Below, piece after piece: positions 4,729 through 64,000 of a stretch of DNA of 64,000 nucleotides. The position numbers and the translations under genes were made by a program. The notes under the pieces were generated by a model. It was not told where the DNA came from. It did no database searches and worked only from the letters and a program-made list of their open reading frames with translations. The stretch is from the IMG/VR virus record IMGVR_UViG_3300028786_000006, positions 64,001 through 128,000 of that record; one strand, written 5' to 3'. Within the stretch, counting starts at the first letter, position 1, and every line of letters starts with the position of its first letter. This DNA comes from a virus.

Positions 4729-5477
4729 TGGCCAGATTGAACAGCCGCGAGGACATGGTCGACTACATCATGAAGCGCCTGGGTTCGCCCGTAATTCAGG
4801 TCAACGTTTCGCCTGACCAGGTGGAAGTGTCGATCGACGAGGCCATCCAGCTCTTCGTGATGCACCACCGTGATGGCTCCGAGGAGACCTTCTACGCGTA
4901 CAAGATGACCGCGCAGGATATCACCAACGGTTACCTCCCGGTCCCAGACAGCATCTACGACATCATCGAGGTGATCCCGAAGGGTGTTGGTATTTCCAAC
5001 ATGGACTTCGCCACCGTCGAATGGCAGATGGTCAACAGCCTGATGAGCCAGGGCCGTAGCTTTGTGCCGATCGGACTGGCAGATTACAACGCGACCCGCA
5101 TGGCGCTGACCAACGTCAACATCATGGTCGGCACGTACAACCAGGCGTTCGTGTTCAAGAAATACAAGCGTCACGTGGTGCCTCAGTTCCCGACATCTGA
5201 AGGCCAGGTCATCTGCTTCCGGTGTTATGAACAGATCAACCCTGATGACGAAGGCAACTCAGCAGCCTGGGACGACCAATGGCTGAAGGCGTACGCCACT
5301 GCGGCGGTCAAGGAGAAGTGGGGCCTGATTCTGAAGAAGGCCGACGGCATTCGTTTGCCGGGTGGTATCACCCTGAACGGCCAGCAGATCTATGATGAAG
5401 CGGTCGACGCCAAAGAGAAGCTGATGGAAGAGCTTCGCAAGAAACACGAACCCCCTGCTGACTTCTTCATAGGCTGA
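4728..5477 (+). CDS. 13: Neck protein gp13
   Basis: KRLGSPVIQVNV, WLKAYATA and LPGGITLNG motifs. Confidence 0.95.
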   Translation: MARLNSREDMVDYIMKRLGSPVIQVNVSPDQVEVSIDEAIQLFVMHHRDGSEETFYAYKMTAQDITNGYLPVPDSIYDIIEVIPKGVGISNMDFATVEWQMVNSLMSQGRSFVPIGLADYNATRMALTNVNIMVGTYNQAFVFKKYKRHVVPQFPTSEGQVICFRCYEQINPDDEGNSAAWDDQWLKAYATAAVKEKWGLILKKADGIRLPGGITLNGQQIYDEAVDAKEKLMEELRKKHEPPADFFIG

Positions 5478-5481
5478 ACCA

Positions 5482-5979
5482 ATGAAATCTTTCAACCATT
5501 TTCTGTGCGAACAGACAGGCCGGGCGCTGATCAACGGCAAGGGCCTGAACGCATTGTTCACCAGAGGCCTGGGTAGCTACTCCAAGACAAAGGTCAAATC
5601 GGGGAAGTTTTTCTTCAAGAAACTGTTGGCAACCCCGACCGAAGTGAAGGTCGAAATGACCTTCTCGTTTATGCCTGGTGACGAGAAGGGTGGGTACTCC
5701 GAAAACGGGTTCGCCACCGTCCGTCGCATCCTGGATTCTGAGTTGCAGGATGCCGGCCAGGTGTTCAATAATACTCAGAATACTCCTCAAAGCCTGGCCT
5801 TTCACGGTAAGTCTCCGGTGGAGTACCACGGTAAGACCGAGCTGACCCAGAAGACCCTGGATATGACGTTCGCGATCAAGCGTACAGGTATCGTGTCTGA
5901 CCTTCTGGGGTATCTTTCCGATACACCGCTGGGTAATGCCGAACTGTACGTCGCAACCATCACCAAAAAGCTGATCTGA
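5482..5979 (+). CDS. Putative internal head protein with capsid-targeting sequence
   Basis: N-terminus MKSFNHFLCE matches the T4 internal-protein CTS pattern (MKTYQEFIAE-like). Confidence 0.6.
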   Translation: MKSFNHFLCEQTGRALINGKGLNALFTRGLGSYSKTKVKSGKFFFKKLLATPTEVKVEMTFSFMPGDEKGGYSENGFATVRRILDSELQDAGQVFNNTQNTPQSLAFHGKSPVEYHGKTELTQKTLDMTFAIKRTGIVSDLLGYLSDTPLGNAELYVATITKKLI

Positions 5980-44904: not shown

Positions 44905-44940
44905 AAAAGGGCCGAACCGATGAGTTGCGGCCCTTTTTTA
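44905..44940 (+). terminator. Intrinsic terminator
   Basis: aaaagggccg...cggccctttttt. Confidence 0.75.
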
Positions 44941-45024
44941 TTGTCTCAACGTGGTTCGAAGTATCGGGTTAGAGACCTCGGTTCAAGAATAATAAAAAAG
45001 ATTCAAAAAAGTTGAATAAAGGGG

Positions 45025-45052
45025 TTGCCTGCCTTGATTAATCGGGTATAAT
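45025..45052 (+). promoter_or_regulatory. Strong sigma70-type early promoter with UP-like A tracts
   Basis: TTGCCT-N16-TATAAT; A-rich 44987-45020. Confidence 0.85.
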
Positions 45053-45122
45053 GGCAACCATCGAAAGGCAAACGCCAATCGAAACAAACAGCCCCACCCC
45101 TTATAGAAGCCAAGGATTTATC

Positions 45123-61683: not shown

Positions 61684-62004
61684 ATGTCCTCGCCTCAAGC
61701 CCTCCACAAGTTCTTCGTTGACCCAGACGAAGTTGATTGTCCGACGTTGGTTGTCACGCGTGGCCCGCTTGCCGGGCGAACGATCAAGGTGACCAACATC
61801 GACGGAGCCCAGGAAGCTGCTGGGCAACACATCGAATTAACGTTCTACTACGATCTGCTCAGCAATGACAGCTCGGAGAGCATCCGTGAGTTCAGGAAAG
61901 GTGATACCCCGACCCTTGACGACACCCATAAGGCTGTCAACGAGGTCATCGTGGCTTACATCCTGAGCATCACCGGGGACGACGATGGCGATCCGCCATC
62001 TTAG
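61684..62004 (+). CDS. Hypothetical protein at the gp40 position
   Basis: Small acidic ORF between uvsX and gp41. Confidence 0.55.
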   Translation: MSSPQALHKFFVDPDEVDCPTLVVTRGPLAGRTIKVTNIDGAQEAAGQHIELTFYYDLLSNDSSESIREFRKGDTPTLDDTHKAVNEVIVAYILSITGDDDGDPPS

Positions 62005-62035: not shown

Positions 62036-63484
62036 GTGTTTATCGAGAAGACCTGCATTTCAAGTCTGCTGTTTGACAAAGATTACAGCCGGAAGGTTCT
62101 ACCCTACCTGAAGGACGAATACTTCTCGGATGAATCCAACCGGGTGCTCTTTGGGCACATTCGTTCATTTAACGCCCGGTACAACTGCGCCCCCACGAAG
62201 GAGGCTCTCGTCCTGCTCCTGGAGGATTCAACCCTCAACGAGAAGCTATATGAGGGGTGCATTGAGACGGTCGCCGAGGTAGAGGCAAGCGCCACCCCCA
62301 CGGAATTTATGGTGGATAGCACCGAGAAGTGGGTGAAAGACCGGGCCGTGTTCTTGGCCCTGACGGAATGTGTGCAGATCGCCGAGGGTATGTCAAAGGG
62401 CATGACCAAGGAGTGTATCCCTGATATCCTCCAGCAAGCGCTCGCGGTTCACTTTGACACCTACCTCGGCCACGATTACTTCGAACATGCGTCCCAGCAC
62501 TATGACGCAATGCACGAGGACGTGATCAAGTTCAAGTTTGCCCAGGACATCCTCAACAAAGCAACCCGTGGGGGTATCCCCAACAAGACTCTGAACATCG
62601 TCCAGGCCGGCATCAACGTCGGCAAGACGACCTTCATGATCGACCAAGCGGCGCATTGGGTTAGCCAGGGCAAGAACGTGATCTACTTCTCGGCCGAGGT
62701 TGCTGAGAACGTTATCCGCCACCGGGCGGACGTAAACTTCTTCGACATCTCGTTCGACGAGCTTGAAAAGCTGGACAAGCAGACGTACCTGAACCGGGTC
62801 ACGTCGCTCAAGCAGAAGACGAGCGGTAAGCTGATTATCAAGGAGTATCCATCGGGTTCGGCCAGCGCGGCGAACTTCATGCACGACATCCAAGAAATCA
62901 AGATGAAGACGGGTATTGAGTTTGACATGGTTTGCGTCGACTACCTCGGCGAGATCATTTCTAGTACCCTACCCATGTCCGCGATGAGCAACACCAACAC
63001 GTACTACACACAGATTGCGCGTGAGCTACGGGCCATGGCCTTCCGCTTAGACTTGCCTGTGTGGACCGCAGCACAGTTTGGTCGGTTGGGCCAGGCCAGC
63101 AAAGACGTTGACATGACGGACATCGCCGATGCAATCGGTATTGCCCGCGTGGCCGACTTCATGATCGCTCTGTTACAACCAGACGAGCTTGCTGAGCTGA
63201 ACCAGGTGATCGGGAAGATCCTCAAGAACCGGTATGCCAACAAGGCCAAGCTGCGTCGCTTCCTTATGGGGGTTGACAACGACCGCCAGAAGTTCTACGA
63301 TGTTGACCAAGCGAACGTCAAGGAAGAGTTCAAGAAGCTGCCACCTGAAGCCCAGGCCGTACTGGAAGGACTTGAGGTCGGGTTGAAGACCCAGGCTGAC
63401 GATGATGCTGAATTACCGCGCCTGACCCCTGTGGGTAACCGCTCCGGTAAGCCAGCTCGCACCTTTGAAGGGTTCAAGGTATAG
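62036..63484 (+). CDS. 41: Replicative helicase gp41
   Basis: RKVLPYLKDEYF, AGINVGKT, IIKEYP, VDY, WTAAQ and KNRY motifs. Confidence 0.95.
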   Translation: MFIEKTCISSLLFDKDYSRKVLPYLKDEYFSDESNRVLFGHIRSFNARYNCAPTKEALVLLLEDSTLNEKLYEGCIETVAEVEASATPTEFMVDSTEKWVKDRAVFLALTECVQIAEGMSKGMTKECIPDILQQALAVHFDTYLGHDYFEHASQHYDAMHEDVIKFKFAQDILNKATRGGIPNKTLNIVQAGINVGKTTFMIDQAAHWVSQGKNVIYFSAEVAENVIRHRADVNFFDISFDELEKLDKQTYLNRVTSLKQKTSGKLIIKEYPSGSASAANFMHDIQEIKMKTGIEFDMVCVDYLGEIISSTLPMSAMSNTNTYYTQIARELRAMAFRLDLPVWTAAQFGRLGQASKDVDMTDIADAIGIARVADFMIALLQPDELAELNQVIGKILKNRYANKAKLRRFLMGVDNDRQKFYDVDQANVKEEFKKLPPEAQAVLEGLEVGLKTQADDDAELPRLTPVGNRSGKPARTFEGFKV

Positions 63485-63510
63485 TTTGAACTCTTTGAAC
63501 AATCTAATGG

Positions 63511-63538
63511 TTGCCTGGTACGACGAAAGCTGTATAAT
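63511..63538 (+). promoter_or_regulatory. Sigma70-type promoter for the ncRNA/downstream gene
   Basis: TTGCCT-N16-TATAAT. Confidence 0.8.
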
Positions 63539-63544
63539 GGCAAC

Positions 63545-63920
63545 CAGGACGACAAGCCGAACCGGGTTTACCGGGTTGACTCGAGTCCTTGTTAGGGGTT
63601 AGACAAGAGGGGCCATTGATACACTACCCCTTGAGTCGCAGGAAACGTGATTGTTTGGGCCGGTTCCTGTAGGGTGATGTACCTCGGCCAACGCTAGGTG
63701 CTATCAACACCCCGAGAACACCAGTAGACCCTGGGATACCCCGCCCTGGACTACACCACTTCGTTGGTGTTGCTGGTACACATTAGACGGTCGGAGACCC
63801 AACCCCGGTCGTTTTAGTCCCCTGGTTACCCCAGGGGGTTTTTGAAAGGGTCAACAGGATTACACCCTGGACCGCTTGGTTCGGCTGCAGTAGCCTGATG
63901 ACCCTTTCAAAACACCCCTC
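63545..63920 (+). ncRNA. Candidate large structured non-coding RNA or leader
   Basis: About 400-nt gap with no sense ORF of 60 aa or more in a gene-dense genome; many nested helices plus a 5'-to-3'-loop pseudoknot. Confidence 0.65.
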
Positions 63921-63943: not shown

Positions 63944-64000
63944 TTGAGCAACGTTGAAATCGCGATCCCAAGTGGTACGGCCGATCGTTTGAAGTTGAAG
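63944..64000 (+). CDS. Start of a DsbA-like dsDNA-binding protein (3' truncated)
   Basis: AGGAG RBS, TTG start; MSNVEIAIPSGTADRLKLK resembles the N-termini of T4-superfamily DsbA homologues. Confidence 0.45.
   Translation, partial: MSNVEIAIPSGTADRLKLK

Follow-up and report, generated by a model that had tools for sequence, protein, structure and literature searches.

The 459-nt gap that separates a gp41-like helicase gene from dsbA in a 162,341-bp IMG/VR virus record very probably contains a conserved structured RNA encoded on the + strand. Its core, of ~270-300 nt, comprises helices H1-H6 and is held by compensatory substitutions on that strand. On balance, the locus is probably a stand-alone gene for a trans-acting structured ncRNA, specific to Cygsa01-like Pseudomonas myoviruses and ending in a leaky terminator. 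Unless another sequence is named, positions are those of the window, i.e., the whole 64-kb stretch of DNA that was analysed, which corresponds to bases 64001-128000 of the record. The coordinates of the features discussed below are collected in Table 1.

Table 1. Features of the gp41-dsbA interval, in window coordinates.
Feature	Position	Strand	Evidence or remark
gp41-like DnaB-family replicative helicase gene	62036..63484	+	upstream neighbour; PF03796 DnaB_C
Early promoter, sigma-70 type	63485..63538	+	TTTGAAC/TTGAAC boxes at 63485-63503; consensus scans
Structured RNA core	63539..63847	+	full-length covariance-model match, Cygsa01-clade family
H1 hairpin, CGA-A-CCGG / CCGG-G-UUG	63558-65 / 63571-78	+	MFE fold; compared by hand, outside the covariance-model consensus
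5' elaboration specific to the window	63578..63637	+	insertion relative to the model; complementarity and MFE fold
H3, stem 63638-44/63664-70, conserved loop GAUUGUUUGGGC at 63649-60	63638..63670	+	both-side changes in 8 of 10 pairs
Candidate kissing loop, H3-loop half UUGGG; partner CCCAA at 63798-63802 in the H6 loop	63655..63659	+	
H4, outer GGGUG/CACCC 63672-76/63708-12, middle 63679-84/63696-701, inner 63687-88/63693-94	63672..63712	+	both-side changes in 7 of 14 pairs
H5, multi-branch domain, closing stem 63720-25/63772-77	63720..63777	+	both-side changes in 6 of 8 pairs
H6, stem ACGGUCGG/CCGGUCGU 63787-94/63805-12, conserved loop AGACCCAACC at 63795-804	63787..63812	+	both-side changes in 7 of 9 pairs
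T, GC-rich hairpin 63819-25/63831-37, then UUUUU 63839-43	63819..63843	+	both-side changes in 6 of 10 pairs
LH, long hairpin of ~19 bp with small internal mismatches	63835-53 / 63899-918	+	RNAalifold
Phage_DsbA gene, TTG start	63944..64000, past the window end to L001:2344	+	PF11126

The locus and its relatives

The nearest named relative of this phage is Pseudomonas phage Cygsa01 (PP179332, 166 kb), a P. syringae myovirus that has been cultured, on host P. syringae JD03, and sequenced; the paper describing it makes no mention of non-coding RNA (PMC11256456). The window helicase shares 77.9% identity with its Cygsa01 counterpart, and the two DsbA proteins are 66.7% identical. The downstream gene was assigned to Phage_DsbA, a family of dsDNA-binding late-transcription proteins, through a Pfam match (43.5 bits, for a cut-off of 25) and through tblastn matches to T4-type dsbA genes. 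It is preceded by a Shine-Dalgarno sequence (AGGAG, at 63932-36), and the next gene after it encodes a TerB domain.

Relatives were gathered by protein look-ups with gp41 and DsbA, on contigs from ENA, Logan and JGI. The same gene order, with a large gp41-dsbA gap, was found in Cygsa01 (L004) and in contigs L105/106/107, L108/109, L110, L111, L131 and L132. In seven to eight lineages, all from one narrow clade, the interval between gp41 and dsbA combines a promoter, a structured core, a GC-rich hairpin followed by a U-tract, and a long hairpin, and in the lineages with this module the RNA always lies directly 5' of dsbA and in the same orientation. Downstream of the promoter, Cygsa01, L132, L108/109, L105-107 and L131 share 66-92% identity, while the window and L110 copies are too diverged for detection by blastn. 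L111, whose gp41 is 68% identical, has the promoter followed by a probable, much diverged copy of the RNA (12 bits with the covariance model, E 0.02) that is devoid of a U-tract.

More distant relatives document the arrangement without the module. In L143 and L144, where gp41 is ~50% identical, dsbA starts 26-58 nt after gp41; in RSP15, small ORFs follow the helicase gene and no copy of the RNA is found anywhere in the genome. Since gp41 and dsbA are adjacent in L143 and L144, their adjacency is older, and the block formed by the promoter, the RNA, T and LH is an insertion that occurred in the Cygsa01-like clade. The inserted block brought its own transcription signals, in a moron-like manner.

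Other elements were noticed around the same genes in some of the relatives. An extra ORF of 61-62 aa, with no Pfam match, is located between gp41 and the RNA promoter in L105 (4542-4727) and L110 (4534-4722), and is absent in the window and in Cygsa01; an ORF of this size precedes the promoter in L131 as well. A second long hairpin domain lies between LH and dsbA in L105 (5130-5320), L110 (5125-5305) and L131 (2810-2985); the window, Cygsa01, L108 and L132 lack it. Its stem is a perfect 24-27 bp helix whose sequence differs in each of the three lineages. In L105 and L110, the loop is ~125 nt long and retains GCUAUGAUC and CACCUAGGAAGG as motifs, which L131 preserves only in part. The long gp41-dsbA gap of L111, the most divergent relative, includes at 5430-5560 a perfect T-arm of the tRNA type, GUGG-UUCGAAU-CCAC, and then CCGGUCGCCCC. 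No tRNA or tmRNA is called there by ARAGORN or Rfam; the stretch could be either an unusual RNA of tRNA-like type or a tRNA-like fragment. Finally, a small ORF just 5' of gp41 in L111 (2224-2595) is listed in the Pfam record as Acb2_Tad1_hairpin, an anti-CBASS/Thoeris sponge fold. This call was not reproduced by a separate Pfam scan at E <= 0.01, and the window ORF at the equivalent place (61684-62004) has no Pfam match.

Covariation and helices of the RNA

A covariance model (R1) was built from a MAFFT alignment of seven relatives, from which the window and L110 copies were left out. With the plain MAFFT alignment of these seven sequences, again without the window, RNAalifold returned 63 pairs, of which 17 are compensatory. 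Searching with R1 (cmsearch) identified L110 over its full length at 68.9 bits, and the window copy at 24.3 bits with an E-value of 3e-6 to 9e-6 (model positions 1-273, L001:1640-1948). At 24 bits, the window copy is the most divergent one, and it is the sole R1 match in the 162-kb phage genome. These two copies, from outside model building, keep the helices with differing sequences. When all nine sequences are aligned, 96.6% of cells pair and 38 of the 63 pairs show changes on both sides, figures that lean toward structure because this alignment was fitted to the model, and that count sequences rather than independent events, in about six to eight lineages of one clade. Sliding the 3' partner by 1-3 columns brings pairing down to 36-46%, and 0 of 500 shuffles reach the observed values. 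In the same nine-sequence alignment, G-U combinations occupy 51 cells and A-C combinations 7, and the constraint therefore acts on the + strand RNA.

An earlier note on this DNA had proposed a structured RNA on the + strand, a claim now carried by the covarying helices together with the G-U excess. Conservation and covariation in relatives, on which that note had made its proposal depend, were indeed found, whether by RNAalifold, by the covariance model or by the count of both-side changes. Folding of the single sequence, which it had also named as a test, is modestly better than that of dinucleotide shuffles, with z = -2.9 for the + strand and -3.9 for the - strand; taken alone, these z-scores are weak evidence.

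The window coordinates of the conserved helices were mapped from the model alignment and hand-checked against the sequence. H1 has the same architecture, in other sequence, in Cygsa01 (CAAC-A-GGGC/GCCC-G-GUUG) and in L110 (GACC-G-GCG/CGC-G-GGUC), as seen by hand comparison. In the 5' elaboration of the window copy, a predicted helix, 63578-85/63630-37, encloses both a hairpin stem (63588-92/63603-07) and the equivalent of H2 (GGGG 63609-12/CCCC 63627-30); the first two of these had also been drawn in the earlier note. The replacement of whole stems is well illustrated by H3, which reads CAGGAA/UUCCUG in the window, CCAACA/UGUUGG in Cygsa01, CCCAGC/GCUGGG in L105 and CCCCGCC/GGCGGGG in L110. 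H5 encloses two hairpins, one of which is ACACCA 63754-59/UGGUGU 63766-71 in the window, and these inner hairpins vary by lineage. The short motifs that survive in all relatives are UUGUU(C/U)GGG, a UUCG-capped hairpin, CCCGAAAGGC, GGAGACCC(G/A)ACCCC and UCCCC-hairpin-GGGUUUU. By our count, four of the internal helices drawn in the earlier note hold up; those at 63638-44/63664-70, 63672-76/63708-12 and 63720-25/63772-77 match covarying helices of the family. In addition, the hairpin that it had drawn at 63819-25/63831-37 and its long 3' stem (63835-53/63899-918) coincide with the covarying helices T and LH.

The best candidate for a tertiary contact is a pairing between the near-invariant loops of H3, U(C/U)GGG(U), and H6, (A)CCC(G/A)A, which would form 5-7 bp. 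Over 5 pairs, 100% of the 45 cells are paired, for 0-60% in slid controls, and one compensatory change, C-G to U-A, is present in the window copy; furthermore, the H3 loop is the sole partner of the H6 loop that is found at a homologous place in all nine sequences. This pairing stays a candidate because its covariation amounts to a single event and the observed value is attained in 47 of 500 shuffles.

The long-range contacts proposed previously fared differently. The helix 63570-78/63800-09 corresponds to real complementarity in the window, yet it draws on the 3' arm of H1 and on the H6 loop, in competition with these two conserved helices. With no consistent counterpart in the relatives, where an equivalent exists in some lineages only, it was rejected as a conserved feature; pairing of the H6 loop with the H1 3' arm (GGUUG with CGACC) was likewise rejected, being restricted to some lineages. 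The pseudoknot between 63875-86 and 63555-66 also reflects true complementarity in the window, where the duplexes that the LH loop can form with the RNA body, this one included, outperform those of 98.5% of shuffled loops. Across six relatives, however, pairing between the LH loop and the RNA body is no better than with shuffled loops, and the pseudoknot is not conserved. Since the long-range helix and the pseudoknot are particular to the window, the multi-domain pseudoknotted architecture is unsupported as it was drawn, and the conserved tertiary candidate is instead the pair of H3 and H6 loops.

Transcription signals and the 3' end

The consensus promoter that had been noted at 63511-63538 was retrieved by consensus scanning as a near-consensus sigma-70 element, TTGCCT-16-TATAAT, with the -35 box TTGCCT at 63511-16 (inside GGTTGCC) and the -10 box TATAAT at 63533-38. 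Both hexamers and their 16-nt spacing are kept in the window, Cygsa01, L105, L108, L110, L131 and L132, while the spacer sequence is free. From this sequence, the RNA is predicted to start near 63545; the core thus has its own promoter immediately 5', as expected of a stand-alone ncRNA gene.

This promoter belongs to a family, TTTGAAC..GGGGTTGC-N17-GTATAATGG, of which at least five further copies front ordinary genes of the phage. They are found at genome positions 47373 (- strand), 109046, 114327, 150319 and 153172, the second and third being window positions 45046 and 50327. An inverted repeat, with GGTTGCC at the -35 and GGCAACC just past the -10, brackets the core promoter at 63508-63546 and likewise at 45020-45060. 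A role as an element specific to the RNA was discarded, since the repeat also brackets the promoter of an ordinary protein gene (45025-45053); it could be bound as an operator by a dimeric regulator, or simply mark a subtype of promoter. The gene driven by the 45025-45053 promoter encodes 263 aa, with an ATG at ~45124 as read by hand (the ORF listing starts the frame at 45051).

At the 3' end of the core, the hairpin T, with a folding energy ranging from -14.3 kcal/mol in the window to -22.3 in relatives, can be read from its sequence as a leaky intrinsic terminator. It is followed by 4-5 U in seven lineages, the relatives having only four, and the consensus terminator scan does not flag it. 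The U-tract is kept at 4-5 U despite an imperfect A-tract partner in LH in the window and L131, which points to a constraint beyond pairing. As a terminator, T must be leaky, because dsbA lies downstream. For comparison, a canonical, bidirectional-looking intrinsic terminator, AAAAGGGCCG...CGGCCCTTTTTT, is present at 44910-44945 of the window, and T is weaker than this one.

RNAalifold recovers the long hairpin LH in all seven lineages tested, with both-side changes in 12 of its 24 pairs, and no other short-range inverted repeat of the 64-kb window is as strong. The possibility that hairpins of this type are a general intergenic element of the phage was ruled out by a survey of inverted repeats in the window. 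The base of LH (GGGGUUUUUGAAAGGGUCA / UGACCCUUUCAAAACACCCC; GGGUUUUCG/CGAAAACCC) includes the last G residues of T and the U-tract, and the two hairpins are in competition for 3-5 shared G residues. With about two turns of double-stranded RNA, the predicted geometry of the LH stem would fit an RNase III substrate.

Rival readings, known systems and function

The gap contains no credible gene, as had been stated earlier. Its longest ORF is 32 aa, no ORF is common to the lineages, where ORFs vary in frame and strand, and 1-2-nt indels occur throughout the alignment of the relatives; a small protein-coding ORF was rejected in the absence of any open frame conserved between lineages. The earlier view that no known RNA family explains the locus also holds. 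Rfam 15 (4227 covariance models, including those for RNase P, 6S, tmRNA, group I/II introns, riboswitches, pRNA, ROOL, GOLLD and HEARO) gave 0 matches at gathering thresholds for the window and eight related loci, and scans at permissive thresholds, run on the window, Cygsa01 and L110 copies, returned only sub-threshold chance matches, e.g., to miRNA hairpins on LH. ARAGORN identified no tRNA or tmRNA in the window and nine loci.

Wider searches were carried out at the sequence level. Blastn of the intergenic region against 50,697 phage records gave no match, because the promoter alone is alignable by blastn. Motif scans of IMG/VR (with GGAGACCCNACCCCG, and with GGAGACCCNACCCCG gapped and GGGTTTT) retrieved unrelated sequence only; no true homologue was obtained with three-part or two-part loop patterns in JGI metagenome contigs, nor with the two-part pattern in GTDB genomes. 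As the scans of these three collections found nothing but unrelated sequence, the family is a narrow one, of seven to eight lineages. A text search of papers revealed nothing similar.

Several explanations other than a stand-alone RNA gene have to be considered. That the interval is a degenerate remnant or spacer, i.e., functionless GC-rich intergenic DNA with chance hairpins or DNA-level palindromes, is extremely improbable. The modest single-sequence z-scores, with a + strand no better than the - strand, and the failure of blastn to align anything beyond the promoter between the window and its relatives would be compatible with it. However, the covariance model recovers the window copy over its full length, the helices are kept via changes on both sides even though the primary sequence is beyond blastn detection, the G-U excess is strand-specific, and invariant loops sit within variable stems; this reading is largely refuted by the covariance-model and covariation results. 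Only slightly less improbable, and still very unlikely, is a replication origin comparable to T4 oriF/oriG or to that of ColE1, with the transcript from the promoter forming a persistent R-loop or a primer. A strong promoter amid replication genes (UvsX, gp41) could suit such an origin, and T4 oriG lies near dsbA, rnh and gene 34. The R-loop origin had been put forward in the earlier note and finds no support here: the GC content of the region (0.559) is that of the genome (0.562), and the region has neither an AT-rich unwinding element nor a cumulative-skew extremum. Moreover, selection bears on G-U-containing, UUCG-capped RNA hairpins and on a hairpin followed by a U-tract, none of which is needed by a T4-type origin transcript, and the module is missing from close kin whose replication relies on the same genes.

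The main rival, which we consider rather unlikely but well ahead of the two previous ones, is a cis-acting leader of dsbA and of the downstream TerB-like gene. The core would then be a ~270-nt sensor, either a riboswitch or a protein- or RNA-dependent attenuator, that sets passage at T, and LH would form only in read-through transcripts. Such a role would agree with the invariable location of the RNA directly 5' of dsbA in the same orientation, with the lack of any separate promoter predicted between T and dsbA in the consensus scan of the window, with the shortness of the U-tract, a trait of terminators that are regulated or leaky, and with the competition of T and LH for the same G residues. 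In addition, as T is not called by the scan and only four U are found in the relatives, the RNA may mostly run on into dsbA as a leader. A sensor-like core and the T hairpin are present; inspection of the alignments of the relatives and of the model showed no conserved antiterminator overlapping the 5' arm of T. LH overlaps T at its 3' end only and lies downstream; being 3' of T, it cannot block T from forming at the time of the termination decision. Furthermore, dsbA comes straight after gp41, leaderless, in the relatives with ~50% gp41 identity and therefore does not need the RNA, the module came with its own promoter, and no Rfam riboswitch class matches at E-values up to 10.

If the locus is, as we favour, a stand-alone gene for a trans-acting RNA, host RNA polymerase would transcribe it early from ~63545, and a fraction of the transcripts would stop at T to give a discrete and stable RNA of ~300 nt. 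This RNA would then work in trans, its fold providing a scaffold for the binding of a protein or some other macromolecule; its stable UUCG-capped helices and invariant loops are in keeping with either a specific binding surface or a tertiary fold. Transcripts that do not stop at T, as well as those coming from gp41, would extend past it and allow LH to form, which could serve as an RNase III-type processing or stabilising hairpin and so part the RNA from the dsbA message. In this scheme the 5' and 3' ends of the transcript, the function of the terminator, the loop-loop pairing and the biological role are all predictions. A search of the phage genome for trans targets gave only 9-11-mers complementary to the conserved loops, at the level expected by chance.

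Few structured RNAs of bacteria and phages exceed ~200 nt and have many covarying helices, and those of this kind that have been solved are ribozymes, riboswitches, guide RNAs or RNP scaffolds. The closest parallels are the orphan large structured ncRNAs of Rfam, such as ROOL, GOLLD, HEARO and raiA. They share with the phage RNA a length that is long for a bacterial ncRNA (~300 nt here), numerous covarying helices, invariant loops or junctions, occurrence in phages and orphan status. In contrast, the RNA described here matches none of their models and falls far short of GOLLD or ROOL in size. Its distribution is limited to one narrow phage clade, and its own promoter is clear.

Other known systems resemble parts of the locus. 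Like phage morons, the module combines a sigma-70 promoter with a hairpin/U-tract and is set between genes that are adjacent in relatives, but its cargo is a structured RNA instead of a protein gene, and its terminator has to be leaky with dsbA downstream. Two conserved and complementary hairpin loops (5-7 nt) that covary once are reminiscent of the phi29 pRNA and of kissing-loop RNAs; however, there is no sequence or model match, the RNA does not lie beside packaging genes, and the phage is a T4-like/Ackermannviridae-like myovirus, for whose packaging motor we know of no RNA requirement. As to LH, its modelled shape, an irregular stem of ~19-20 bp with small mismatches between two units of one transcript, is similar to that of the RNase III hairpins of T7 early genes (e.g., R1.1). 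The base of LH differs in that it overlaps a terminator U-tract, which to our knowledge is not the case for the T7 sites.

More tentatively, and with less confidence than in the stand-alone gene as such, the RNA could represent an undescribed class of large, tertiary-folded phage RNAs with a biochemical job of their own, performed early in infection by Cygsa01-like phages of P. syringae. Candidate jobs include inhibiting a factor of host defence or RNA processing or serving as a decoy for it, self-assembly through the complementary H3 and H6 loops, and ligand sensing as a domain of a new riboswitch class. The family is missing from Rfam, to which it adds a new one, and the RNA sits, as an insertion equipped with a strong early promoter of its own, within the block of replication genes of a phage clade. 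Since this clade has a cultured and sequenced member, Cygsa01, what the RNA binds and whether it benefits the phage are directly testable.
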